A stretch of 64,000 nt of DNA from Verrucomicrobiia bacterium (lineage in GTDB: Bacteria > Verrucomicrobiota > Verrucomicrobiia > Limisphaerales > Palsa-1400). The translations under genes were made by a program, and so were the position numbers. Location: the NCBI GenBank assembly GCA_036268455.1, contig DATAUD010000119.1, forward strand, positions 21,155 to 85,154, written 5' to 3'. How positions within the stretch are numbered: the first letter of the stretch is position 1; every line of letters starts with the position of its first letter. Of this stretch, positions 3,540 through 61,198 are shown piece by piece. Under the pieces are notes generated by a model that saw only the letters and a program-made list of their open reading frames with translations, ran no database searches and was not told the DNA's origin.

Positions 3540-3556
3540 TTGGCACGGCAAACGCT
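3540..3556 (+). promoter_or_regulatory. candidate sigma-54 (-24/-12) promoter TTGGCACGGCAAACGCT
   Basis: TGGCAC-N5-ACGC-T, with GG and GC at canonical spacing. Plus orientation, directly upstream of the CheY/bactofilin operon. The -12 GC is only 13 nt before the ATG at 3569, which implies a near-leaderless transcript. Confidence 0.4.
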
Positions 3557-8704: not shown

Positions 8705-10156
8705 ATGAACCTGAACGAGTATCACAGGGAAGAAGGCAAAAAATTACTGACGCGGCGCTACTTTTTTAAGGAATGCGGCATGGGGCTTGGGGCGCTGGCG
8801 CTGGCGTCTTTGTTGCGCGGGACTGATGCTGGAGCCGCGCCCGCGGTCAATCGGATGGATCCACTAGGGCCGCGTTCGCCGCAATTTGCGCCGAAGGCGA
8901 AACGAGTCATTTATCTTTTCCAGGCGGGCGGCCCGAGCCAGTTGGACATGTTCAATTACCGGCCAGCTCTGGAGAAATACGACGGCCATCCGATCCCCGC
9001 GGAATTTGTAAAGAATCAGCGATACGCATTTATTAAGCCGGACGCGGCGCTGTTCGCGTCGCAATTCAAATTTGCCAAACACGGGCGTTGCGGCACGGTG
9101 CTTTCCGAAGTGCAGCCGCATCTGGCTGAGGTTGTCGATGACATTGCGGTGATCAATTCGATGACGACGGTGGCTTTCAATCATGCGCCGGGACAAATAT
9201 TCATGAACACAGGCGCCACGCAATTCGGACGTCCGAGCATGGGGGCGTGGGTGACATACGGATTGGGCAGCGTGGCACGGGACTTGCCGGGATTTGTGGT
9301 GCTCAGTTCGGCGGGCGGAACCAGTGGCGGAGCCGGGAACTGGGGGGCTGGATTTTTGCCGACGGTGTATCAAGGGGTGCCATTCCGGCGGAGCGGAGAC
9401 CCGATTTTATATCTGGCCAATCCGCCCGGGATAACTCCGCAGATGCAACGGCGGTCGCTCGACGCGCTCAAAGCGTTGAACCAGGAGCGGCTTGACGTGG
9501 TGGGCGACCCGGAGATTTCGACGCGCATCAATTCGTTTGAGATGGCCTACAGGATGCAGACGAGCGCGCCGGAGTTGATGGATATTACGAAGGAATCCAA
9601 AGAGACGCTTGAGATGTACGGGGCGGAGCCGGGGAAGAGTTCCTTTGCCAACAATTGTTTGCTGGCGCGAAGACTCGTGGAGCGCGGGGTGCGGTTTGTG
9701 CAGCTTTTTCATGAGGCGTGGGACCATCACAGCGATGTTACGGGCAACGTCAGGAAAGAGTGCGGTTTGACCGACAAACCGTGCGCGGCGTTGATCAAGG
9801 ACTTGAAGCAGCGCGGATTGTTGGAGGATACTTTGGTGATATGGGGCGGAGAATTTGGCCGGACGCCGATGGTGGAAACAAACAAGGAAGCCGGCCGCAG
9901 CATGGGCCGCGACCATCATCCTCAAGCGTTCACAATGTGGCTGGCGGGCGGGGGGGTTAAACCCGGATTGACCCTTGGCAAAACGGATGAGTTCGGGTTC
10001 AACATCACTGAAGACCCGGTGCCGGTGCACGATCTGCAGGCGACGATTCTCTATTTACTGGGTTTCGATCATACCAAGCTGACTTATCACTTCCAAGGAC
10101 GCGATTTTCGATTGACAGACGTCGAAGGGGAAGTTGTCAAGAAGCTGCTGGCGTAG
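8705..10156 (+). CDS. DUF1501 (sulfatase-fold) protein with Tat signal
   Basis: [19 protein letters not shown] twin-arginine signal; WGGEFGRTP...GRDHHP core motifs. Usual partner of DUF1553 proteins. Confidence 0.9.
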
Positions 10157-27219: not shown

Positions 27220-27235
27220 TGGCATCCTGGTTGCT
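27220..27235 (+). promoter_or_regulatory. candidate sigma-54 promoter TGGCATCCTGGTTGCT
   Basis: TGGCAT-N5-TTGCT with a single deviation from TGGCAC-N5-TTGCW. Intergenic, correct orientation, 45 nt upstream of the acyltransferase start. Confidence 0.45.
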
Positions 27236-27278: not shown

Positions 27279-28388
27279 TTGAAATCGTTGATACCCAGTT
27301 TGAATGGTTTGAGGGCGATTAGCATTTTGCTCGTGATATCGTGTCACGCAAACATCTGCTATCAATTCGTCGGCTCCAAATCCCCGCTTTCACTCTGCGC
27401 GGACGGGCGTTTTGGGGTGGGGGTTTTCTTCGTGATTTCGGGATTTCTCATCACGACGCTCTTGTTGAGGGAGGAGGAAGAAAACGGGCGGATATCCATC
27501 AAGAAGTTTTATCTCAGAAGAGCGTTCAGAATTCTGCCGGCCTATTACGCGGTACTTTTGGCGTATGCCGTTTTGCAATGGGCGTCGGTCTTGCGGATCA
27601 GCCTCGCTTCATGGATGACCGCGCTCACTTATACGAGCGTTTTTTACCCGGGCGGATGGGAAACCGCCCACTTTTGGTCGCTTTCAACGGAGGAAATATT
27701 TTACCTGGCGTGGCCGTTTATCTTTGTCATGTCACCAAAGTTCCGAAAGTCCTTTTCAATTTTAGTGGTGGCCTATTACCTGGTCTTAAGATTGGCGCAG
27801 GCAATTTTTCCCGCGATTGAAATGGGATCGCTCGCGGGAGATGCCATCATGTGGGGGTGCATTTTTGCCCTCTGGCATGAGGAAATACTCGGGGCGCTGA
27901 CTCGCGCGATTAATCGGTGCCGGGCCTTGGCATGTCTGCCTTTTTTGATGATTTTCCTGCTGAAACTCGCCGGCAATATCCAAAGCAACAGCCTCGCGTT
28001 CAGGATTGTCAATGGAGCGATGGGCACGACGGTTGGAACGGTTGCGGATGTTTGCATCGGCCTGATCATTTTATTTTCCATCCATTTCACGCATAATTTC
28101 TGGTTCGCCTTTTTGAATTTCAAATGGGTCAGCCGGGTCGGAATACTTTCCTACAGTTTGTATCTCTGGCAGGAACTTTTCTTTGTCCCAAGTCTTGGAA
28201 TATTGTCGGTTTTTCCAATTAATTTCTTGTGCATGTTCATCGTCGCGGCTCTTTCGTATTGGCTGATTGAAAAGCCTTTCTTGCGCTTTAGGCCAGGCGC
28301 GGAACCCAGGCGCCAGCTAACTCCTGTCGTTGGCAATAATTCCATCCGGCTGGGAAGTGCCCGGCTGCCTGTGGATCTTCTTGGATGA
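27279..28388 (+). CDS. acyltransferase family 3 (OafA/YrhL-like) membrane protein
   Basis: TTG start. LNGLRAISILLVISCH, FFVISGFLIT and RRAFRILPAYY motifs; about 10 TM helices. Visibly lower GC than its neighbours (not computed). Confidence 0.8.
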   Translation: MKSLIPSLNGLRAISILLVISCHANICYQFVGSKSPLSLCADGRFGVGVFFVISGFLITTLLLREEEENGRISIKKFYLRRAFRILPAYYAVLLAYAVLQWASVLRISLASWMTALTYTSVFYPGGWETAHFWSLSTEEIFYLAWPFIFVMSPKFRKSFSILVVAYYLVLRLAQAIFPAIEMGSLAGDAIMWGCIFALWHEEILGALTRAINRCRALACLPFLMIFLLKLAGNIQSNSLAFRIVNGAMGTTVGTVADVCIGLIILFSIHFTHNFWFAFLNFKWVSRVGILSYSLYLWQELFFVPSLGILSVFPINFLCMFIVAALSYWLIEKPFLRFRPGAEPRRQLTPVVGNNSIRLGSARLPVDLLG

Positions 28389-50140: not shown

Positions 50141-52396
50141 ATGCCGCACGACTCGAACAACTCACATTCCATTGGTCGCGGTGAGGCGTTGACGACCCAG
50201 TCGGGACGCCTCCAACGGGCGTGGCATGCCGCGCGCGGTTTCGCGCTTCGCCAGCCCAACGGCCAATTTGTTGAAACCATCGTTGTGGTCTGGCTGACCC
50301 TCTCCGTCGCCAGCGTCGTCCTGGCAAGCGCCACGTGGATTCAATTCTCGGGAAAATTAAATACCGCCACACAGACAGTCGCCATCCGAATCAAATTAGA
50401 GGCGATCTATAATCTTCTTCTTCAAGCCGACAGCAGCCAGGGTGCCTATGTCATTACCGGCGACAAGCAATTCCTCAAATCATTGGACTCGAGTTCCAAA
50501 AGTTTGCCGCCCCTTTTTGAGCAACTTGCCGTGCTGGCGCAGAACGATCCCGTGTTGCTCAAGCGCGTCATGGACTTGCACGGCCAGGCCGAGGTGAGTC
50601 TCAATTACCAGCACCGTGTCGTCGCCGCCCGCCAGGAGCAAGGGCAAGCCGCAGCCGCCGCACTGGTCGCCACCGGCGAAGGCCAGAGCATGATGGAAGC
50701 CATTCGCAAGGACACCGATGAAATTGCCAACGAGCGGGCCGACCACCTCGTTTCCGACCAGGACGGAAGCGCCCGCTATCAACTGAAGCGCGCCAGCTTG
50801 ACTGGCCTTACCGCCGGCATCCTCGGAATCGGCGCCGGAGTTCTGGCTTTTGCGCTCTCACGGTTGACCGTTAAACATCAGGAGCGCGAGCGTGAATTGA
50901 TCGAAGCCCGCCTCCAGGCGGAGCGGCGCAGCCAGGAAAAGACCGCTTTCCTCGCCAACATGAGCCATGAAATCCGCACGCCGATGAATGCCATTCTCGG
51001 GTTCAGCGAACTTTTGGAGGAGGATTTGCGCGCGTCCAAACACCGCACCTATTTGCAATCCATCCGGCGCAGCGCCTCCTCGCTCCTTCAACTCATCAAC
51101 GACATGCTCGACATGTCGAAAATCGAGGCTGGCGTCCTCGAATTGCGGCCTGAACCGACCGATCCGCGTGAAATTTGCAATTTCATCCAAAGCGTCTTTT
51201 CCGAGACCGCCGCAAAAAAGGGTTTGTGGATGTCCTGCAAAATTGCTGGCGATCTGCCGCATGCTCTCTTGCTCGATCGGATTCGTTTGCGCCAGATTTT
51301 GGTGAACCTTGTGGGGAATGCCGTCAAGTTTACCGATCACGGCGGGATCGAGACTCGCATGAGTTGGGAAAAACAAACGGATGGCGGCCGAGTCACGCTC
51401 GTCATCGAAGTCGAGGACACCGGCGTCGGCATTCCGTTGGACCGCCTGGAAGCGATCTTCAAGCCGTTTGTCCAGGCAGGCGCGCATCGCGAAAAGGAGA
51501 ACCAGGGGGCGGGGCTTGGACTTTCGATTGTCAAACGCCTGACCGAAATAATGGCGGGCACCGTCACAGCCAGCAGCATGCCGGGGCGCGGTTCGATCTT
51601 TCACTTGCGGTTTCCCGATGTCCCGGTTTCGGCGCGCCTGCCTTTGACCGAGTTGGCCAAAGACCGGGTGGCGACGGATTTCAATGCCCTTCGCCCCTCA
51701 AGATTGTTGGCTGTCGATGACAATGAGACCAATCGCCAGCTTCTTGGCGCAATGTTTGCGGGTTCGCATCATCGGCTCTTCCTCGCCTCTGGCGGACGGG
51801 AAGCTGTGGAAAAGGCCCGCCAACTCCGGCCCGATATTATCTTGCTGGATATTCGGATGCCAGACATCGACGGCTGCGAAGTGCTCGATACGTTGCGAAA
51901 GATTCAAGGGCTTGAGGTGACGCCAGTCATTGCGATCACCGCTTCGGGTTTGATTTCCGAGGAAAACGCGATGAAGGCGCACTTCAGCGGTTATGTCCGG
52001 AAGCCCTTTACCCGCCAGGATATTTTTGACCAACTGGCGCAATTCCTTCCGTCGCAAGTCACCAAAGAATCCGCCCCCGCGCCAGCCATTGCAGACACCC
52101 GCAACGCTTCGGCCTCCGCCGTTCCTCGCGAGGTTCTTGTGGAAGTGCAACGGCTGATGGACGCCGAGTGGCCGTCCGTGCGGGACAGCGTGGCCATCAA
52201 TGAAAGCAAAGCCTTTGCGTCCAAACTTGATGTGCTCGGCCGGCGTTGGAGTTGCGAACCGCTGATTTCCTACGCGCGAATCCTTCGGAGCCACGCGGAA
52301 AGTTACGCGGTGGTCGATCTTGAGAATACGTTAATGGATTTTTCCAATGTGTCTCGGGAACTGCATCGCCAAGCCTCGGACTATGCAATCAAATGA
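50141..52396 (+). CDS. CHASE3-domain hybrid sensor histidine kinase/response regulator
   Basis: TM, CHASE3 (LLLQADSSQGAYVITGDKQFLKSL...), TM, HisKA (ANMSHEIRTPMNAILGFSELL), HATPase_c, REC (RLLAVDDNETN...DIILLDIRMPDIDG), plus about 110 aa of helical C-terminal extension. Confidence 0.9.
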   Translation: MPHDSNNSHSIGRGEALTTQSGRLQRAWHAARGFALRQPNGQFVETIVVVWLTLSVASVVLASATWIQFSGKLNTATQTVAIRIKLEAIYNLLLQADSSQGAYVITGDKQFLKSLDSSSKSLPPLFEQLAVLAQNDPVLLKRVMDLHGQAEVSLNYQHRVVAARQEQGQAAAAALVATGEGQSMMEAIRKDTDEIANERADHLVSDQDGSARYQLKRASLTGLTAGILGIGAGVLAFALSRLTVKHQERERELIEARLQAERRSQEKTAFLANMSHEIRTPMNAILGFSELLEEDLRASKHRTYLQSIRRSASSLLQLINDMLDMSKIEAGVLELRPEPTDPREICNFIQSVFSETAAKKGLWMSCKIAGDLPHALLLDRIRLRQILVNLVGNAVKFTDHGGIETRMSWEKQTDGGRVTLVIEVEDTGVGIPLDRLEAIFKPFVQAGAHREKENQGAGLGLSIVKRLTEIMAGTVTASSMPGRGSIFHLRFPDVPVSARLPLTELAKDRVATDFNALRPSRLLAVDDNETNRQLLGAMFAGSHHRLFLASGGREAVEKARQLRPDIILLDIRMPDIDGCEVLDTLRKIQGLEVTPVIAITASGLISEENAMKAHFSGYVRKPFTRQDIFDQLAQFLPSQVTKESAPAPAIADTRNASASAVPREVLVEVQRLMDAEWPSVRDSVAINESKAFASKLDVLGRRWSCEPLISYARILRSHAESYAVVDLENTLMDFSNVSRELHRQASDYAIK

Positions 52397-54177
52397 ATGC
52401 TTTATTGCAAAATATGGAGCCGTCGGCGCTGGACCTTCTCAAGGATCGGCGCATTCTCGTCGTGGACGATCAATGGACTAACATTCAGGTGGTGGGCGCG
52501 TTGCTCGGGGACCTGGGTGTGGAAATCATTCCGGCGCTCAACGGCCAGGAGGCCCTGGACCGGGCTTCCGCCTGCTCCCCGGATCTGGTCCTCCTTGACC
52601 TCATCATGCCCGGCATGGATGGTTGCGAGGTTTGCCGCCGTCTTTCCGAGACTGGGCAAGGCCGCGAAATTCCAATCATTTTTCTCTCCGCGGCGGATGA
52701 TAAGGACTTGGTCGTCCGCGCATTGACCGCCGGCGGCGTCGATTACATCACCAAACCGTTCAACTCGGCGGAATTGCTTTCCCGCGTTCGGACTCAACTT
52801 GCCCTGAAGTCAGCCCGTGATGATTTAAAGCAATTGGCTGAGGAAAAGGACGAACTTCTCGGGATGTTGACGCACGATTTGAAGAGCCTCCTCGGCGGAA
52901 TCAATTTGAGCGCTGGATTGGCGCAAGACCGCCTTGCGACGGTGAACAATCTTTCTGCCGCAAAATTGGCGGAGGAAATCGCCGACGGCAGCGCGCGCCT
53001 TCTCTCCTTTGTAAAACAATTCCTCGCCACCGCTGCCACAGACCACGCGATCCCCGCCGACTCCCATCGGGCCTCCCCAGTCGGACGCGTCCTCGTCACG
53101 GATGACCAGCCGGAAAACATCCAGTTGGTCGGCGCCATTTTGGGCCGCCTGGGTCACGAAATCATTCCGGCGACGGACGGTGCTACAGCCGTCAAACGAA
53201 TGGAGTTAAAAACGCCGGACCTGGTCCTTCTGGACCTTCTGATGCCGCGCATTGACGGCTTCGAAACGTGCCGCCGCCTCCGCTCCAAACCCGAAGGCAA
53301 AGAAGTTCCAATCATTTTCCTTTCCTCCGCGGGCGACAAGGATTTCATAGTTCGGGGCTTGCAGGCGGGGGCAGTGGATTATGTCACCAAACCGTTTCAC
53401 CAAGCCGAATTGGTGCTCAGAGTGCAAACCCAATTGGCCTTGAAGTTTACCCGCGACCGTTTGGCGCAACTGGCCTCAGACCGCGAACACTTGCTCGGCC
53501 TGCTGGCGGACGATTTCAAGAAACAACTGGAAAAAACGCTCGATCAAGCCCGCTCTTTAGAACATCGGACACAAGGATGCCCCGACGAACGCGCGGCCCA
53601 ATTGGCGGTGAATATCGCCCGTTCCGCGGAGCAACTGGTGGAGTTTGTGACGGGCTTTCTCAACGCAGCAGGCGAAAAGCCGGCGTTGCGACGGGTTCCG
53701 TTGAGTTTTTCCAACGCGGTGAAAGGGACAGTCAAACGCTATCTCGAATCAGCGCGGGAAAAGGACGTGCGCCTCGTTCTCGAACCGCCGCCACCGTCAG
53801 AAAACGACCTGGTGCTGGCGGACGAAACGGCGGTCAATCGAGTCCTGGATAATCTTGTCTCCAACGCGCTTAAATTTTCGCCTCGAAAAACAACCGTCCG
53901 GCTTTCCGTCCAATCCAGCGGCCGCCAAGTCCAATGCCGGATCGCCGACCAGGGCCCTGGTTTTACACCGGAGGATAAGACACGCATGTTTCGCCGGTTC
54001 GGGCGTCTTTCCGCCCGTCCCACAGGCGGCGAGCCTTCCACCGGCCTCGGCCTCAGCATAGTCCGAAAATTGACCCGGGCGATGGATGGCGAGATTACCT
54101 GCCAATCCGTTCCTGGCGAGGGCGCCGTTTTTACCGTCGGCCTGCCCCGCCTTCCCGGTCAACTCACCCAAAGCTGA
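52393..54177 (+). CDS. REC-DHp-REC-DHp(degenerate)-HATPase_c signalling protein
   Basis: ATGA overlap with the upstream gene. Two receiver domains (ILVVDDQ...DLVLLDLIMPGMDG; VLVTDDQ...DLVLLDLLMPRIDG). Each is followed by a DHp-like helix (LGMLTHDLKS versus LGLLADDFKK), and a single C-terminal ATPase (NLVSNALKFSP...DQGPGF...GLGLSIV). Confidence 0.85.
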   Translation: MNALLQNMEPSALDLLKDRRILVVDDQWTNIQVVGALLGDLGVEIIPALNGQEALDRASACSPDLVLLDLIMPGMDGCEVCRRLSETGQGREIPIIFLSAADDKDLVVRALTAGGVDYITKPFNSAELLSRVRTQLALKSARDDLKQLAEEKDELLGMLTHDLKSLLGGINLSAGLAQDRLATVNNLSAAKLAEEIADGSARLLSFVKQFLATAATDHAIPADSHRASPVGRVLVTDDQPENIQLVGAILGRLGHEIIPATDGATAVKRMELKTPDLVLLDLLMPRIDGFETCRRLRSKPEGKEVPIIFLSSAGDKDFIVRGLQAGAVDYVTKPFHQAELVLRVQTQLALKFTRDRLAQLASDREHLLGLLADDFKKQLEKTLDQARSLEHRTQGCPDERAAQLAVNIARSAEQLVEFVTGFLNAAGEKPALRRVPLSFSNAVKGTVKRYLESAREKDVRLVLEPPPPSENDLVLADETAVNRVLDNLVSNALKFSPRKTTVRLSVQSSGRQVQCRIADQGPGFTPEDKTRMFRRFGRLSARPTGGEPSTGLGLSIVRKLTRAMDGEITCQSVPGEGAVFTVGLPRLPGQLTQS

Positions 54178-54178
54178 C

Positions 54179-55540
54179 ATGGACTTCCTCATCATAGATG
54201 ATGATAAAACGTTCCGTGATGCGACGCGATTGGTCGTGGAAGGGGCTGGCCATTACGCTGAAGGGGCGGCTTCGGGCGATGAAGGTCTCGCCCTCTTGAA
54301 ACAGGAAAAATTCGAGGCCGTTCTCCTGGATGTTCACCTCAACGGTGAGAACGGACTGGAAGTGCTGCCGCGAATTCAGGAACAGAATCCTGGCTTGCCC
54401 GTCGTGCTCTTCACTGCCGAGGGCAACGTCAAGACTGCCGTTGAAGCCATGCGGCTGGGCGCGGTTGATTTCCTGGAAAAACCCTTTCAACGGGAGCATT
54501 TTCTGGCCGTTCTGGCGCGATTGCAACGGCTTCGCCAGATGGGCCAGAAAATCGAGCGTCTGGAGCGCGAAGTCACAGAATCCAAGACGAATTCTCTGGA
54601 ACCCGTCTTCAATTTCAACACTCCCGCCATGCGGGACGCGATGGATGTGCTCATGCGCGCCGCCAAAACTCCCGCTTCCATTCTCATTTTGGGCGAGAGC
54701 GGCACCGGCAAGAGCGTCGCCGCCCGCGCCATTCATCAGAACAGTCACCTGGCGGACAAGCCATTCGTCACCGTCAGTTGCCCGAGCCTTTCAAAAGAAT
54801 TGCTGGAGAGCGAGCTTTTCGGCCACGTCCGCGGCGCATTCACGGGAGCCGTCAAGGATCATTGGGGCAAAGTCAGGGTGGCCCACGGTGGCACGCTTTT
54901 CCTCGATGAAATCGGCGATCTGCCGATGGAGATTCAACCCAAGCTCCTCCGCCTCCTCCAGGAACGCGAATACGAGCGCCTAGGCGACAACTCTGTCCAT
55001 ACCGCCAACGTCCGCGTCATCGCCGCCACCAATCGCAACCTCAAGGAGCGCGTCGCCGCCGGCGTCTTTCGCGAAGACCTCTTTTTCCGTCTCAACGTCA
55101 TCACCGTCGAAGTGCCTCCCCTGCGATTGCGCCCCGACGATCTTGGTCCTCTTGCCGAACATTTCCTCCGGCATTTCGCGCAGCAATGCGGACGCAAGCT
55201 GGACGGCTTTTCTCCCGAGGCCATGGCGTGCATCCGGCGTCATCCGTGGCCCGGCAATCTCCGGGAACTTTGCAACGCCATCGAACGCGCCGTCATCCTG
55301 GCGGGCGGCGAAATGATCCTACCTCAGGATTTGCCCGCTGATTTGAGCCATCCCGATTCCGGCAATGGCAGCCAGACCGACGACTTAAAGGCGGGATCGT
55401 TAGTTTCGTTGGAAAAGCTGGAAGAGGTTCACATTCGGCGTGTCCTGGAGCGCACCGCCCGGTTGACCGAAGCCTCCGAGATTTTGGGCATCGATCAGGC
55501 GACATTATACCGAAAACGCAAAAAAATCGGCTTGGAATAG
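54179..55540 (+). CDS. sigma-54-dependent response regulator (NtrC family enhancer-binding protein)
   Basis: Trimmed to [12 protein letters not shown], 1 nt after the upstream stop. REC, AAA+ ([14 protein letters not shown]), Fis-type HTH ([20 protein letters not shown]). Confidence 0.9.
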
Positions 55541-55641
55541 CCATCCATCACAGCAGACCGATTTCGCGCTCAATGATGAGAATATTCAATTAAATGCTTC
55601 TTCAACTACGAAAAACATACTTCAAATAGACAATTTCCGGC

Positions 55642-56796
55642 TCACGCATCAAGCAAGTCACCGACTGATTGAAGCGCCGGCAGTCGGTCGCAGATGACTT
55701 TCAATGTCACCAATATCGGCATCGCCAGCAATCCTCCCATAATTCCCCAAAGCCACGCAAAAAACATCAGCGCCACGAAAATGACAACCGGGTTCAGCCG
55801 AAATCGATACCCCAGCAGAAATGGAGTAACAAGGTCCGCTTCCAACACGTGCCAGCAAAGATAAATCCCCCCCGGCAGCAACCCGCGCAATACCGTGTCA
55901 AAGGAAAGAAGCCCCGCAACAGACACCACGATAATCCCGGCAATCGGTCCGAAATACGGTATATAATTAACCACACCCGCCAGGACCCCCCACATCGTGG
56001 CATTGGGCATTCCCGCCAGATGTAAAGTAAATCCCACGCACACTCCAAGGCAGGTGTTGATAATGCTGACAGCAAAAAGATAACGGGAAATGTTCTGCTG
56101 GATCTGATGCGTCATCTCGACCGCTTCCTTTTTGTCACCCTTTGGTTGCAGTACACGAACCAGCCTCGGCGTGAAGCGATCTCCCGTGGCGAGCAGCAGA
56201 AACAATAACACACCCGTTTCGATGACACCGGTGAACAACGCGCCGGTCCATGTGAAGACCGTCCCCGCGATGGCGCCTCCGGCGGGAATCGGCGCGGCGG
56301 CAGGCTCGGGGGGTTTTCCCGTGGTTTTGTTGTCCACGTTTTGCACGGCGGCCATGAGCCGGGAAACAGGGCGGAAGAAACGCTGATATTTCTCCCGCAA
56401 TCGCGGCAAGGATTCCGGCGCCGTTCGCAACCAATCACTGACGGGTCGGCCAAGGTTGACCAATCCCCAACCCAGCCCGGCGACAAGGATTCCCATGAGT
56501 ATGGCGGCGGAAATCGGGGCCGGAATCCGATGCGCCCTCAGCCAGGTCATCGGGGGATACAACGCCATCGAGGCAACCCACGCGAGCAATACCGGCAGCA
56601 CTACCGATGAGGCGCAGTAGAACAAAAGAAGAAACCCCGCGCAAGTGATGATCAATCGCGTGGCGTACGAGAGCATTGCATCTGGTTTGCGGTCTGCTTT
56701 CGTATGCGACGCTTGCGAGTGGCGACGCGCGGAATGCCCATCCTCTTTTTCGATAATTGGGTGAGTCGGCGGGTCTGGCATCGTTTTGATAGCCAT
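55642..56796 (-). CDS. AI-2E family transporter (PerM/UPF0118)
   Basis: Trimmed to MAIKTMPDPP; the TAATG overlaps the upstream small gene. About 8 TM helices; the C-terminal GGLLAMPILVTLKVI pattern is typical of PF01594. Confidence 0.8.
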   Translation of the reverse strand: MAIKTMPDPPTHPIIEKEDGHSARRHSQASHTKADRKPDAMLSYATRLIITCAGFLLLFYCASSVVLPVLLAWVASMALYPPMTWLRAHRIPAPISAAILMGILVAGLGWGLVNLGRPVSDWLRTAPESLPRLREKYQRFFRPVSRLMAAVQNVDNKTTGKPPEPAAAPIPAGGAIAGTVFTWTGALFTGVIETGVLLFLLLATGDRFTPRLVRVLQPKGDKKEAVEMTHQIQQNISRYLFAVSIINTCLGVCVGFTLHLAGMPNATMWGVLAGVVNYIPYFGPIAGIIVVSVAGLLSFDTVLRGLLPGGIYLCWHVLEADLVTPFLLGYRFRLNPVVIFVALMFFAWLWGIMGGLLAMPILVTLKVICDRLPALQSVGDLLDA

Positions 56797-56942
56797 TATA
56801 CGCGTCTCCCCTGGATTAAACGAATCAATATCAGCACGATCGCCACGACCAGGAGAATGTAAATAAATCCGCCCAGCGTATAAGAGGAGACAATCCCCAA
56901 CAGCCACGCAATGATTAGGACTAGCGCGATCGTGTAAAGCAT
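56796..56942 (-). CDS. lmo0937-family small membrane protein (48 aa)
   Basis: MLYTIALVLIIAWLLGIVSSYTLGGFIYILLVVAIVLILIRLIQGRRV matches the conserved lmo0937/DUF5670-type two-helix peptide as I recall it. Confidence 0.7.
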   Translation of the reverse strand: MLYTIALVLIIAWLLGIVSSYTLGGFIYILLVVAIVLILIRLIQGRRV

Positions 56943-56957
56943 TCGTCGTTTTCTTTT

Positions 56958-56973
56958 AGCTTGTTGTGTGCCG
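56958..56973 (-). promoter_or_regulatory. weaker sigma-54-like promoter (minus sense CGGCACACAACAAGCT)
   Basis: GG and GC at canonical spacing. The -12 GC lies 16 nt before the ATG at 56942 (near-leaderless). Confidence 0.3.
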
Positions 56974-57004
56974 CGCGATCTCCAACCAAAATGGACGCGG
57001 GGGC

Positions 57005-57050
57005 TTGCAATTTGCAAATGTGGCGCTTTCCGCCGCCTTGCGGTTTGCAA
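57005..57050. promoter_or_regulatory. TTGCAA(A) repeat cluster / imperfect palindrome centred near 57028 (candidate shared UAS)
   Basis: TTGCAA at 57005-10, 57012-17 and 57045-50. TTGCAAA (57012-18) and TTTGCAA (57044-50) form an inverted repeat around the GGCG-CTTTC-CGCC hairpin. Confidence 0.35.
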
Positions 57051-57081
57051 CCGAATGCGAGGTATGCCCGCGATGCGCGAG

Positions 57082-57097
57082 TGGCACGGTGTGTGCA
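57082..57097 (+). promoter_or_regulatory. candidate sigma-54 promoter TGGCACGGTGTGTGCA
   Basis: TGGCAC-N5-GTGCA, one mismatch to consensus. Intergenic, correct orientation, 72 nt upstream of the DUF3185 start. Confidence 0.5.
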
Positions 57098-57167
57098 GGA
57101 GTTTTCCTTTTGGGTGGCGGCTCTTTCGGTTTCCTGGCTGGCATCCAAACTAAAAGAAAGGATCGCT

Positions 57168-57383
57168 GTGAAAAGAGGAATTGGATTAGCTTTGTTGGCC
57201 GCGGGCATCGCATTGACTGTGTATGGAATCAATGCTTCAAATTCGGTGGGATCTGATTTTTCCCGAATGTTCTCGGGTTCGCCGACGAATAAGACCATTT
57301 ATTTGCTGGTGGGTGGGATTGCCGCGATAGTGTGCGGCGCCGTGCTCAGTCTGACCAGCCGCTCTGGCCCACGCAGTTCTTAA
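57168..57383 (+). CDS. DUF3185-family small membrane protein (71 aa)
   Basis: GTG start preceded by AAAGGA. VKRGIGLALLAAGIALTVYGINASNSVGSDFSRMFSGSPTNKTIYLLVGGIAAIVCGAVLSL matches the two-TM DUF3185 pattern. The track ORF 56961..57383 is over-extended. Confidence 0.65.
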   Translation: MKRGIGLALLAAGIALTVYGINASNSVGSDFSRMFSGSPTNKTIYLLVGGIAAIVCGAVLSLTSRSGPRSS

Positions 57384-57396
57384 AACTTAAAACTCC

Positions 57397-57426
57397 GAAG
57401 GAACGGACACGGATGTCCGCTCCTTC
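57397..57426. terminator. bidirectional hairpin terminator between convergent genes
   Basis: GAAGGAACGGACA-CGGA-TGTCCGCTCCTTC (12 of 13 bp paired), flanked by an A/T-rich run upstream and CTTCTCTCTGTT downstream. Confidence 0.5.
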
Positions 57427-57441
57427 CTTCTCTCTGTTCAA

Positions 57442-58362
57442 CTACTTAATGTTTTGCGGCACGTTTGTGCTGTTGTAGGGCAAGGTGGAAAGACCATTGC
57501 TGGCCGTCGGTGGATTGCCGGGATGGGTTGTGTTGTAGGCCGGGTTATTGTTCGCGGGATTATTGTTGGCCGGATTGTTGTTGGAGGTGTTGTTGTTGAT
57601 GGCGCCAGGTTGAGAGGAGGTTGTGGTGCCGCCATTCGCGCGGTTTATGGCCCCAGGTTGGGAAGAAGAAACAGAAGCCCCTGAATTCACAGCGCCAGCG
57701 GCGCTTCCTGGTTGAGACGATTGGGATTGAGCGGGCGCTACGGGCTGAGATGGCGCGGTAGGTTGCGACTGCGCCCGTGGCTGGGTCGGCTGTGTCGTGG
57801 CGGGCGCGGCCGGCGCGGCTCCCGTCACAGCACCGCCAACGGGCGCGAGCAAAGCAAGCGCATTATGACTCAGCAATTCTGAATGACGTCCAATTGTCGC
57901 TCCCGGCGCTGCCGGTGTGGGAGCGCGCTGGCGTGGAGGATTTCCCGTCGAGGGAACGCCCACTGTTGCTCCCGGCGTTCTGGGCGTGATTTGGCCTGGG
58001 ACAGCCGGGAGGCCCTGGCCCGGCGGAATCGCGGAGGGAACGCCCCCCGGGTTCGCCGCCGGTGGGATGGCGCCTGGATTGACTACGGCCGGGCCGCCTG
58101 GATTGACTGGAGTACTCCCCCCCGGATTTATAGGTGTTCTGCCTGCCGGGTTCACTGGGGTTTTGCCTCCGGGCGCGGGCGTTGCTGCGCCTGGCGTGAC
58201 TCCATTCGGCGGATTTACAACCGCCGGTCCACGCGGCTGTGGCGGCAGCGGGATCGCCCGCTGAACGGGCGGAGGCGTTACCGGGTTTACTTGGGCCTCG
58301 CCCACGACGCTTATAGCCGCGCCTAAAGCCATTAGCAGGGTGGTCAGGTTTTTAATTTTCAT
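57442..58362 (-). CDS. secreted low-complexity Pro/Gly/Asn/Gln-rich protein
   Basis: Trimmed to MKIKNLTTLLMALGAAISVVGEA with an AAGGAG RBS. PxNPGG repeats, SSQPGAIN repeats, NNNPA x3. Confidence 0.6.
   Translation of the reverse strand: MKIKNLTTLLMALGAAISVVGEAQVNPVTPPPVQRAIPLPPQPRGPAVVNPPNGVTPGAATPAPGGKTPVNPAGRTPINPGGSTPVNPGGPAVVNPGAIPPAANPGGVPSAIPPGQGLPAVPGQITPRTPGATVGVPSTGNPPRQRAPTPAAPGATIGRHSELLSHNALALLAPVGGAVTGAAPAAPATTQPTQPRAQSQPTAPSQPVAPAQSQSSQPGSAAGAVNSGASVSSSQPGAINRANGGTTTSSQPGAINNNTSNNNPANNNPANNNPAYNTTHPGNPPTASNGLSTLPYNSTNVPQNIK
57538..57597. repeat. four tandem 15-nt units (coding NNNPA-type repeat)
   Basis: ggccgggttattgtt / cgcgggattattgtt / ggccggattgttgtt / ggaggtgttgttgtt, read directly. 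Confidence 0.8.
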
Positions 58363-58530
58363 ATAAATCTCCTTAATTATCTCAGCATCAGCAATGCCGC
58401 GCCCCTCGGCGGGGTTGGACCATGTTTCAGATGCAAAATGCAAATTGCCGCCCACCTCTAGTGCATGTTGCAACGGCCCGGTGGGACGCAAACTCCGCGA
58501 TTCATGCTTAAAGCGGGGAATCGCGGCCCT

Positions 58531-58546
58531 TGGCATGGGGCTAGCT
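58531..58546 (+). promoter_or_regulatory. candidate sigma-54 promoter TGGCATGGGGCTAGCT
   Basis: TGGCAT-N5-TAGCT, with GG/GC at canonical spacing. Intergenic, correct orientation, 77 nt upstream of the OMP gene. ATGCAAA x2 (58431-44) and TTGCAA (58468-73) lie upstream. Confidence 0.45.
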
Positions 58547-58621
58547 AAAACCGCGCTTGGTTCGACGCCCTTCCATTGTGGGACGAGGGAGCGAACAAAA
58601 CGCTGACTTGACAACAAAATT

Positions 58622-59197
58622 ATGAAGACATGGCAAAAACTGACTGTAATGGGACTCATTGCTTTAATGGGATCGTCCACTTCGATCCAGGCTCAAACCG
58701 CGACCGCAACCACCCCTCCGCCCAATAATCAACCCAGTCCTCAAGATACAGATCTTCTCTACCACGCCCAGGAGTGGTCGGTTGACCTTTTTGGAATTGG
58801 CACCGTGGGCGAGCATACGCTCGAGCATTTTACTGATCACAATATCCGGCATGATGGGCGTTTGGGATTGGGAGTAGGCGCAAACTACTTTCCCTTCCGT
58901 TATTTTGGCTTCGGAGTGGATGCTTATTCGGAGGGTACCGGTGGTTGGGTAGTCCAGGACGTCTCGGGAAGTTTGATTGGCCGGCTGCCTATCGGCAATT
59001 CTCCATTTGCGCCTTACGCTTTCGCGGGCGGCGGTCGCCAATTTGAAGGCTGGCGCCAGTGGGAGGGCCATTTGGGCGTGGGGTTGGAAATCCGTTTTGT
59101 TCAGCACGTCAGCTTTTTCCTGGATGCCCGGTACGTGTTAACGCAGAATAGTCCCAATTATGGCCTTGGCCGCGCTGGATTTCGCTTCAGCTTCTAG
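58622..59197 (+). CDS. small outer-membrane beta-barrel protein (OmpW/OmpA-barrel-like)
   Basis: Signal peptide MKTWQKLTVMGLIALMGSSTSIQA; alternating amphipathic strands; C-terminal GLGRAGFRFSF with terminal Phe. Confidence 0.7.
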   Translation: MKTWQKLTVMGLIALMGSSTSIQAQTATATTPPPNNQPSPQDTDLLYHAQEWSVDLFGIGTVGEHTLEHFTDHNIRHDGRLGLGVGANYFPFRYFGFGVDAYSEGTGGWVVQDVSGSLIGRLPIGNSPFAPYAFAGGGRQFEGWRQWEGHLGVGLEIRFVQHVSFFLDARYVLTQNSPNYGLGRAGFRFSF

Positions 59198-59289
59198 CGG
59201 AGGGAGCGGCGGCTTCGGGGGGGGGTATTCGCCCTATTGTCGCGAGCCGCCGCGATGAATAAGTTTTTGTCCGCTTGAAATTGTAAACT

Positions 59290-59295
59290 TAAAAT
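59290..59295 (+). promoter_or_regulatory. possible sigma-70-type promoter (TTGTCC-N17-TAAAAT)
   Basis: -35 at 59267-72 and -10 at 59290-95, 16 nt before the yciE-like ATG. Hexamers only moderately good. Confidence 0.25.
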
Positions 59296-59311
59296 ATAAC
59301 CCGAAAAGATT

Positions 59312-59839
59312 ATGAGCAAATTACGCGAAACGTTTCTTGAAGAGGCCGCGGACATCTATGATGCGGAGAAGCAATTGATAAGAGCGCTGCCAAAAATGGC
59401 CAAAGCCGCCGAACACCCTGAACTTAAGGAAGCTTTCGAATCGCACCTGTCTGAAACAGAGGAGCACGTGCGAAGGCTGGAACGGATCTTCGAGATTTTC
59501 GGACACAAAGCCAGGGCGAAAAAATGCAAGGCGATGCAGGGTTTGGTCGCCGAGGGTGAAGAACGCATTTCCGATGAAGCCGGTGACGCCGCCCTGATTT
59601 GCGCCGCGCAAAAAGTCGAACATTACGAGATTGCCGGTTACGGCTGTCTCCGCACATGGGCGTCGCTCCTTGATGAAGAGGAGGCCGCCGATCTCCTTCA
59701 GGAAACATTTGATGAGGAGAACGCCGCCGATGAACATTTAACCTCACTCGCGGTCCAAATGATCAATTCGGCCGAGAATGAGGCTGAGGGCGAGGACGAA
59801 ATGGAGGAAGCGACCGCGCACAAACGCGGAGCGCACTAA
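59312..59839 (+). CDS. ferritin-like DUF892/YciE family protein
   Basis: LEEAADIYDAEKQLIRALPKMAKAAEHPELKEAFESHLSETEEHVRRLERIF...AAQKVEHYEIAGYG is the characteristic YciE pattern. Confidence 0.85.
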   Translation: MSKLRETFLEEAADIYDAEKQLIRALPKMAKAAEHPELKEAFESHLSETEEHVRRLERIFEIFGHKARAKKCKAMQGLVAEGEERISDEAGDAALICAAQKVEHYEIAGYGCLRTWASLLDEEEAADLLQETFDEENAADEHLTSLAVQMINSAENEAEGEDEMEEATAHKRGAH

Positions 59840-59863
59840 GGGAACGTCCTGGGGAAAGCAGGA

Positions 59864-59895
59864 GCAGCGTCAATATACTTGACGCTGCTTTTTTT
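59864..59895 (+). terminator. rho-independent terminator
   Basis: GCAGCGTCAA-TATAC-TTGACGCTGC (10-bp perfect stem) followed by T7. Confidence 0.75.
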
Positions 59896-59902
59896 CGCCA
59901 AG

Positions 59903-61198
59903 TCAATGCCCCGACTGAGTCTGTCCGCGCGGCTTCGCCGCAGCGGCGGCGGCCGCCGCAAAATCTATTCGCCCCCAGCCGTAGTACTCATTCCAAGGGC
60001 GCTGGCCTAATTGTACTGACGTCCGCTTCAAAATATCAATCGCATCGTCCGGACCAAGCGCGGGGTTGATGCTGAAGAGCACCGCAACCACGCCGCAAAA
60101 TAACGGGGACGAATAACTGGCGCCGCTGCCGTAGGCGTACCCTCCGCCGGTCGCTGTGGAATAAATTTTGTAGCCCGGCGCGGCGAAATCAACGTGCGGG
60201 CCGAAATGAGATTGCAGGTTGTCCGCCGCGTCCGTCATGGAAATGCAGTAAACATCCGGCTGGTTGGTCCAATTGAGGCGGCCTTTGCCATCCCCGGCGG
60301 GCATCGCAAGGATGCCCCTGGCTTTGGTCTTCAAATACCGGCCCGCGGCTTCCAGCGTCGCTGTATTGGCGCCAGTCCAACTGATGTTCACCACACGCGC
60401 GCCATGATCGGCGGCCCAGACTGTCGCGTTGTACATTTCGCTGATCGCCCCGTTGATGGAGATGGGAAGGATCGCGCAATTTCCGGCGCCGGCCACTCCT
60501 TTGCCGTTGTTGATGACGGCCGCGGCCATGCCGGCGCACATCGTGGCGTGCCAGTTGCCGGGGCCGGGCTTGATGGGAGCATTGGCGACAATGTCCCAAC
60601 CAGGGACGGTGTTTGCGGCAAGGTCCGGATGATCGGTTTGAAACGGTTTGTCCACGATGGCGATGCGGACGGAGGGACGGCCCAAACCGTAATCCCATGC
60701 GCGATAACTTCCAATGACCTTATGGTGCCACTGATTGGTGATCTGCGGATCGTCCGGCACAAATTGCGGGCTTTCAAAAATATCCAGTTCGGCGAATTCG
60801 ACATCGGAACGGTGTTCCAGTTCCCGCACGGCCTCGCTCTCCCGCATTGCTTCGACGCGCAGGGCGTCCACATGCTTCCGACCTCGAAATTTCACAAGAA
60901 CGCATTCGGGATTGAACAATTCGATTTCGTGATCGCCGGGATTTTGCGCGCGGCCAAAGTAACCGGTTTGAAAATGGATGTGGGCGAGTGTGTTGGCTTC
61001 CGGCAAGGGGATTGCCTTCGCGGGCAAATCCGACGCGCTCAGTTCGTCTAACAAAACCAAGTCGGGAATGAGGCGTCCGGGGATTTCGCGGGGCGGATTT
61101 TGGTCCCGCAATTGCGTCGGGAGATTCTCCGGGTGCGACGCAAAACGAACCGCCAAGCCCAAGGCCAGCATCAAGGCCAATCCTGGAAGCCATTTCAC
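59903..61198 (-). CDS. secreted S8 family serine peptidase (subtilase) with I9-like propeptide
   Basis: Signal peptide. Catalytic D (IAIVDKPFQTDHPDL), H (NWHATMCAGMAAA), S (GSGASYSSPLFCG). Confidence 0.85.
   Translation of the reverse strand: MKWLPGLALMLALGLAVRFASHPENLPTQLRDQNPPREIPGRLIPDLVLLDELSASDLPAKAIPLPEANTLAHIHFQTGYFGRAQNPGDHEIELFNPECVLVKFRGRKHVDALRVEAMRESEAVRELEHRSDVEFAELDIFESPQFVPDDPQITNQWHHKVIGSYRAWDYGLGRPSVRIAIVDKPFQTDHPDLAANTVPGWDIVANAPIKPGPGNWHATMCAGMAAAVINNGKGVAGAGNCAILPISINGAISEMYNATVWAADHGARVVNISWTGANTATLEAAGRYLKTKARGILAMPAGDGKGRLNWTNQPDVYCISMTDAADNLQSHFGPHVDFAAPGYKIYSTATGGGYAYGSGASYSSPLFCGVVAVLFSINPALGPDDAIDILKRTSVQLGQRPWNEYYGWGRIDFAAAAAAAAKPRGQTQSGH

Follow-up and report, generated by a model that had tools for sequence, protein, structure and literature searches.

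A candidate bidirectional sigma-54 control region around a paired palindromic activator site in a Verrucomicrobiia genome

How one short intergenic region might serve two genes that are transcribed away from each other is the question raised by a divergent spacer in the genome of a Verrucomicrobiia bacterium from soil (contig DATAUD010000119.1). The spacer lies within the 64-kb stretch of DNA that was analysed, referred to here as the window, and it separates the gene for a small DUF3185 membrane protein from that for a DUF5670 (lmo0937-family) membrane protein, which is followed by an AI-2E family transporter gene. An earlier note on this DNA had proposed that two back-to-back sigma-54 promoters in the spacer are fired by a single activator, encoded close by at 54179-55540, from a shared upstream activating sequence (UAS). 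The analysis reported here suggests that this is probably the case, with the spacer being a bidirectional sigma-54 control region from which the activator would fire both promoters. The window has two putative modules of this kind, and the region is predicted to belong to a regulon of small stress-type proteins that extends across the clade.

When 56700-57400 was read directly all of the strings that had been quoted from the spacer were found where they had been placed, and the hexamer TTGCAA is present three times (57005-10, 57012-17 and 57045-50). The repeat unit had been taken to be TTGCAAA...TTTGCAA; the actual unit is a 13-bp palindrome with the consensus TTGCA-N3-TGCAA that is present twice, the last of the hexamers being the right half of the second 13-mer, TTGCGGTTTGCAA. 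The centres of the two palindromes are 33 bp apart, or three helical turns, which places both on the same side of the helix. Outside them are -24/-12 elements in opposite orientations. The plus promoter, TGGCACGGTGTGTGCA, has one mismatch to the consensus TGGCAC-N5-TTGCW, the minus promoter, CGGCACACAACAAGCT, has its GG and GC correctly spaced 10 nt apart and three mismatches (C1, A12 and A13), and it scores 18 against 21 for the plus promoter, in agreement with its earlier description as the weaker of the two. The TTGCAA sites had been thought roughly equidistant from the two -24 elements, and the measured distance from each palindrome centre to the -24 GG of the nearer promoter is exactly 39 bp on both sides. 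This symmetric geometry puts the UAS sites at about -63 and -96 relative to each of the promoters, which is unusually near and leaves no space for a separate site for a bending protein. A simple consensus scan found no sigma-70-like promoter in the spacer, and no Rfam family was matched within 55500-60000.

Neither the hexamer nor a loose match to the sigma-54 consensus is enriched in the window, with 29 TTGCAA hexamers against 29.8 expected and 37 loose consensus matches against 35 expected. When GG-N10-GC sites are given a weighted score, that of the plus promoter is shared by only 2 sites among the ~128,000 positions of the window; the minus promoter, by its score alone, is not significantly above chance. 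Palindrome pairs occur twice in the window (57005/57038 and 58431/58461), where dinucleotide shuffles give ~0.05. Significance attaches to the palindrome pair with its context, and not to the hexamer or a loose promoter match.

The nearest relatives of the window, the loci L001 and L002, are both syntenic with it and have activators that are 92% and 87% identical to its own. Between the window and L001 the four elements of the spacer are 81-100% identical, against 42-55% for the gaps between them (Table 1), and the plus promoter has as its equivalent TGGCATGGCCTGTGCA, located 40 bp from the UAS. The minus promoter of L002 sits in flanks of which only 3/15 and 13/31 positions are identical, and the gap of 14-15 nt between this promoter and the ATG is kept in both relatives.

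Comparison was extended to a set made up of the window and 46 orthologous loci, 549 kb in total, with the loci retrieved by means of the activator protein at 58-92% identity. Almost all of the loci are from Verrucomicrobiia metagenome-assembled genomes, and in nearly all of them the activator gene is the last of a cassette in which it follows two histidine kinase genes, HK1 and HK2. The set contains 31 paired 13-mer clusters, against 0-2 (mean 0.3) in 20 dinucleotide shuffles, an enrichment of ~100-fold, with the palindromes spaced 30-33 bp apart in all but two of them (29/31). If promoters within 160 bp of a pair and with a score of at least 18 are counted, an outward -24/-12 promoter is found on 44 of the 62 pair flanks and an inward one on 3, with a background of 0.07 per flank, and 16 of the 31 pairs have promoters on both sides. 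Putative back-to-back sigma-54 promoters around one candidate enhancer are the rule in this clade. The distances from the proximal UAS centre to the -24 element cluster at 39, 50, 61, 72, 83 and 94 bp, a period of ~11 bp with a resultant length R = 0.67 that was reached by 0/5000 random sets. Such distance classes suggest a strict face-of-helix rule, under which phasing of ~11 bp would be expected, as is observed. The compact class of 39-41 bp is that of the window, L001 and L041. Local pairs, meaning those within 6 kb of the activator, are present in 18 of the 46 orthologous loci, and together the outward flanks, the phasing and this linkage to the cassette argue for the earlier proposal that one activator would serve both promoters from a shared UAS.

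The genes downstream of the promoters were collected as promoter-anchored open reading frames (ORFs) that were clustered across loci, with representatives scanned against Pfam, this procedure replacing a greedy longest-ORF calling in which the activator and small genes had been missed. A promoter of the canonical form CGGCAC-N5-TTGCA leads to CsbD in 11 loci, in an operon that sometimes extends to DUF3185. The opposite promoter is of the class YGGCAY-N5-NNGCT and has one of two gene sets, the first with DUF883 (ElaB/YqjD-like), a YqjE-like Phage_holin_3_6 protein and a third small protein, the other with a Dps-type ferritin and DUF5670; the class was found upstream of DUF5670-containing operons in L004, L023, L027, L030, L039, L041 and L045. 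In at least 10 loci the operon of this promoter runs on into HK1, HK2 and the activator, therefore positive autoregulation is implied. Further predicted targets are DUF1328, an entericidin-like lipoprotein, the AI-2E transporter, an outer membrane protein (OMP) of the beta-barrel type and DUF892. Both DUF3185 and DUF5670, the two families on either side of the spacer, are found downstream of such promoters elsewhere in other gene arrangements. As to the transporter, L040 has DUF5670 and then an AI-2E gene upstream of HK1 (1199-2503), and in L024 what remains of AI-2E between DUF5670 and HK1 (2182-2426) are two short fragments that look like a decayed copy.

The second back-to-back module of the window (58384-58546) lies between a gene for a proline-rich secreted protein and genes for an OMP beta-barrel protein and DUF892. 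It is conserved in L001, where the counterpart of CGGCATTGCTGATGCT is CGGCATTAGTGATGCT, likewise 39 bp from the UAS, and that of TGGCATGGGGCTAGCT is TGGCATGAGGTTAGCT, and it is partly conserved in L003, in which the counterpart of TGGCATGGGGCTAGCT is TGGCATGACGTTAGCT.

The candidate for binding the palindromes is an NtrC-family response regulator of the enhancer-binding protein (EBP) type, with a Sigma54_activat match at E = 7.5e-66 and a GAFTGA loop at 54833. Both pairs in the window are within 3 kb downstream of its gene and none was seen elsewhere in the 64 kb, and its C-terminal helix-turn-helix (HTH) is near-invariant across the loci examined. It could not be placed in a named orthologue group, as the NCBIfam equivalog cutoffs for AtoC (score 395, cutoff 714), NtrC (372, cutoff 559) and ZraR (341, cutoff 760) were all missed, and the nearest solved structures are Aquifex NtrC4 and NtrC1. 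In NtrC-family activators phosphorylated dimers at paired sites form an AAA+ ring, which drives the formation of the sigma-54 open complex with ATP. For the spacer the proposal is that two dimers of the activator would bind the palindromes centred at 57011 and 57044 on one face of the DNA, and that some inducing signal would lead to phosphorylation of the activator by way of a relay through the CHASE3 hybrid kinase and the REC-REC kinase encoded upstream of it. The phosphorylated dimers would then assemble into an active AAA+ ring that could contact the sigma-54 holoenzyme in the closed complex at either promoter, with ATP hydrolysis opening the complex, so that the plus promoter would provide for DUF3185 and the minus promoter for DUF5670 and the AI-2E transporter. 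Transcription starts were predicted from the usual spacing of -12 to +1 (Table 1), and a near-leaderless DUF5670 transcript follows arithmetically from the predicted +1.

There are a number of points that weigh against the spacer being a shared control region of this kind, some of them general and others linked to a particular rival explanation. The orthologous loci and their promoters are non-independent observations, some of the data in which the motif was counted had earlier served to define it, and the weighted scheme for scoring promoters is our own approximation of the published consensus. A UAS centre 39 bp upstream of the -24 element is short for looping, and no RpoN box was seen in the 64-kb window. 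The minus promoter is poor in its -12 region (AAGCT), 60 sites in the window reach its score of 18, or roughly one every 2 kb, and its predicted leader of ~5 nt is unusual, being one in which a Shine-Dalgarno sequence would not fit. It might be assumed from this that only the plus promoter works, for DUF3185, and that the minus GG-N10-GC is non-functional with DUF5670 and AI-2E expressed from an unrecognised promoter of housekeeping type, since in Verrucomicrobia such promoters may evade a simple consensus scan. We regard this as quite improbable, given that the minus 16-mer is 15/16 identical in both L001 and L002 in spite of its diverged flanks in the latter, that at least 7 further loci have a promoter of the YGGCAY-N5-NNGCT class ahead of an operon that includes DUF5670, that the 39 bp is symmetric on both sides and is met again at 58399 and in L001, and that outward promoters outnumber inward ones by 44 to 3. 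It is more improbable still, to the point of being scarcely credible, that the TTGCAA sites are a chance cluster around a GC-rich hairpin acting as a structural element in RNA or DNA. The hexamer is not enriched, and the GGCG-CTTTC-CGCC hairpin that the earlier note had set between the repeats is present, with the spacer segment folding at -8.8 kcal/mol, but its stem is lost in L001, and the spacer between the two palindromes varies among the 31 pairs and in most cases does not fold. This explanation is contradicted by those unfolded spacers, by the ~100-fold enrichment of pairs and by the footprint in L001, where the 13-mers are conserved while the stretch between them is 11/20 identical, nor is there an Rfam match. 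The hairpin was rejected as a functional part on the grounds of its loss in L001 and the variable spacers, and it is probably incidental to a GC-rich spacer.

A different question is whether promoters and palindromes are real and the palindromes are bound by another regulator, either a paralogous EBP encoded elsewhere or a repressor. A local pair is absent from 28 of the 46 orthologous loci, the cassette is downstream of neither promoter in the window, and a second activator is encoded in the window at 656-2329 on the minus strand. Moreover a metagenome scan for perfect pairs found 122 in many phyla, with a sigma-54 promoter at only 34 of the 122; being such a mixed set it gained little as a way to widen the regulon. 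Perfect TTGCA-N3-TGCAA pairs are found in other phyla beside other activators (35-44% identity), where the genes driven are unrelated and include those for NifX/NifB-like small proteins, an HTH protein in gut-metagenome contigs, and KdpF (loci L053, L058, L063, L082, L108, L116, L142; L076, L080, L123, L141, L143, L155; L064, L097). The motif class seems to be common to a wider subfamily of activators with a TLYRK-type recognition helix, and as the same motif occurs beside other activators the motif alone cannot name the binding protein. Against another regulator are the 31 pairs within 6 kb of the orthologous activator where 0.3 are expected, the promoters that read straight into HK1-HK2-EBP in at least 10 genomes, and the position of both window pairs close to the activator gene. 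The second activator has a different HTH and recognition helix and is 55 kb away, and the metagenome pairs too adjoin an activator gene. Binding by some other regulator is thus considered unlikely, and control of both promoters by the 54179-55540 protein from the shared UAS is the reading that is preferred.

Divergent sigma-54 promoters with a shared UAS are a known, textbook architecture. ZraR (HydG) of E. coli and Salmonella controls the divergent zraP and zraSR sigma-54 promoters in one intergenic region, and FhlA regulates both hyc and hyp (PMC4987338). The window resembles zraP/zraSR in having two outward sigma-54 promoters around a common activator region (56958-57097 and 58384-58546) and in the envelope or stress proteins that would be the targets, to which in relatives of the window the regulator's own two-component operon can be added. 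It differs from zraP/zraSR in that the cassette of the window is under neither promoter, unlike that of at least 10 relatives, and from ZraR in that the activator is non-orthologous, the motif is TTGCA-N3-TGCAA, the sensor would be a CHASE3 hybrid kinase together with a REC-REC kinase, and the predicted regulon consists of many small stress-type proteins at several loci. At glnAp2, NtrC binds two dyad sites on the same helical face, three turns apart, which nucleate the oligomer that activates the sigma-54 holoenzyme, and its half-sites are TGCACC-N5-GGTGCA. The paired dyad sites, here 30-33 bp apart, are a likeness to this system, whereas the activator falls under the NtrC cutoff, the half-sites differ, and the sites (about -63 and -96) are much nearer the promoter and would serve two promoters. 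Comparative genomics of the sigma-54 regulons of Desulfovibrio vulgaris has also described divergent operons with one predicted activator motif, as for the DVUA0100 type III secretion genes, but the phylum, activator, motif and target functions are all different, and neither the string TTGCA nor TGCAA occurs in the text of that paper.

The genes themselves are reminiscent of the RpoS, SigB and EcfG stress regulons, as CsbD, DUF883 (ElaB/YqjD), YqjE-like, Dps, DUF892 (YciE/F), entericidin, DUF1328 and lmo0937 families are all represented. Other than lmo0937 the families of this set are known as members of RpoS or SigB regulons. In Listeria lmo0937 responds to SigB inhibition (PMC3225968). The difference is that here the control would be by sigma-54 with an ATP-dependent activator and a phosphorelay, rather than by replacement of the sigma factor or a partner-switching cascade. 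No literature on a sigma-54-driven regulon of the CsbD/DUF883 type, on a verrucomicrobial stress regulon or on this system in Verrucomicrobia, was found in open-access text. What is new lies in the motif, the activator and the predicted regulon of stress genes.

It is tempting to go further than the window, and a broader proposal is offered tentatively, as a possibility that we hold to be clearly short of even. Soil and freshwater Verrucomicrobiia (Limisphaerales-like) may run a general-stress set by sigma-54 and without a dedicated stress sigma factor, through one autoregulated cassette of CHASE3 kinase, REC-REC kinase and NtrC-type activator that acts at compact, phased, bidirectional enhancers as near as -63. 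The set in this broad sense would comprise CsbD, ElaB/YqjD-YqjE, Dps, YciE/F-type DUF892, entericidin, DUF1328, lmo0937/DUF5670 and DUF3185. If true, an activator-gated sigma-54 route would join the known modes of general stress control, and nature would offer cases in which an enhancer acts bidirectionally at short range (-63). The phylum is largely uncultured, with hardly any of its transcription factors characterised; for it the comparison provides a testable regulatory code, made up of the 13-bp motif, the pairing rule and the promoter geometry, and it ties an uncharacterised activator/kinase cassette to stress proteins of unknown function (DUF3185, DUF5670, DUF1328, DUF892 and CsbD).

Table 1. 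Features of the two candidate sigma-54 modules and of the neighbouring genes; positions are those of the window, starts and leaders are predicted
Feature	Position	Strand	Predicted +1	Predicted leader	Identity in L001; L002	Remarks
Divergent spacer	56943-57167					225 bp; between DUF5670 ATG 56942 (-) and DUF3185 GTG 57168 (+)
Strong -24/-12 promoter TGGCACGGTGTGTGCA	57082-57097	+	~57108	~60 nt, to DUF3185	13/16	Toward DUF3185; L001 differs outside the consensus positions or by C to T at position 6
Weaker -24/-12 promoter CGGCACACAACAAGCT	56973-56958	-	~56947	~5 nt	15/16; 15/16	Reverse complement of 56958-56973; toward DUF5670/AI-2E
UAS site 1 TTGCAATTTGCAA	57005-57017				13/13; 11/13	Perfect TTGCA-N3-TGCAA palindrome, 13 bp; centre 57011
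UAS site 2 TTGCGGTTTGCAA	57038-57050				13/13	13-mer, 9/10 match to TTGCA-N3-TGCAA; centre 57044
Three stretches between elements					14/31, 11/20, 13/31	
GGCG-CTTTC-CGCC hairpin	57022-57034					Present in spacer
Second UAS pair	58431-58473					ATGCAAAATGCAA (58431-43) and GTGCATGTTGCAA (58461-73), 30 bp apart; kept in L001 (11958/11988)
-24/-12 promoter CGGCATTGCTGATGCT	58399-58384	-	~58373	~11 nt, starting at AAGGAG		39 bp from proximal UAS centre; toward proline-rich secreted protein gene
-24/-12 promoter TGGCATGGGGCTAGCT	58531-58546	+	~58557	~65 nt		Toward OMP beta-barrel gene (58622-59197) and DUF892 (59312-59839)
DUF3185 small membrane protein gene	57168-57383	+			97%	GTG start; Pfam E = 6e-20
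DUF5670/lmo0937-family membrane protein gene	56796-56942	-				Pfam, NCBIfam
AI-2E family transporter gene	55642-56796	-				Start overlaps DUF5670 stop (TAATG); Pfam
Proline-rich secreted protein gene	57442-58362	-				ATG 58362
HK1, CHASE3 hybrid histidine kinase	50141-52396	+				First gene of HK1-HK2-EBP cassette
HK2, REC-REC-histidine kinase	52393-54177	+				Second gene of cassette
NtrC-family response-regulator EBP	54179-55540	+				REC, Sigma54_activat AAA+, HTH_8; Pfam, NCBIfam

The identities given earlier to the neighbouring genes (lmo0937 family, AI-2E, DUF3185 and sigma-54 activator) were upheld by Pfam and NCBIfam. In the window the cassette lies upstream of the divergent unit, is convergent with the AI-2E gene and is under neither promoter, and no UAS was found in the 67-bp gap between the cassette and PqiA. 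Two ORFs that overlap the spacer were set aside. That at 56961-57383 on the plus strand (140 aa) crosses the spacer and was rejected, the Pfam DUF3185 match beginning at the GTG at 57168, and that at 56921-57298 on the minus strand (125 aa), called by JGI, looks spurious as it is without a Pfam hit and is truncated in L001. The spacer is non-coding, because indels between the window and L001 within 57098-57167 break any reading frame. Public JGI gene calls (Ga0376689_0000109; L171 5743-6120) omit DUF3185 and list the 125-aa antisense ORF instead. Among the loci that are syntenic for the cassette, L002, L004, L016, L019, L023, L030 and L045 are from bins labelled Baltobacteraceae, Acidiferrales, Bifidobacteriaceae or Methylomirabilota, and it is likely that these are mis-binned contigs or that the labels are wrong.

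Other candidate sigma-54 sites are present in the window. A strong -24/-12 match, TGGCACGGCAAACGCT (3541-3556, plus strand), lies 13 nt upstream of the start codon (ATG, 3570) of a gene for a response regulator and adjoins the second GAFTGA activator (656-2329, with its GAFTGA near 1420) and a kinase-like ORF, it is another very short-leader arrangement and there is no TTGCA-N3-TGCAA pair nearby. Five sites in the window score at least 20, amongst them TGGCATCCTGGTTGCT (27220-27235), which is 43 nt upstream of an ORF at 27279-28388, and another top-scoring site at 9273 is inside a gene.

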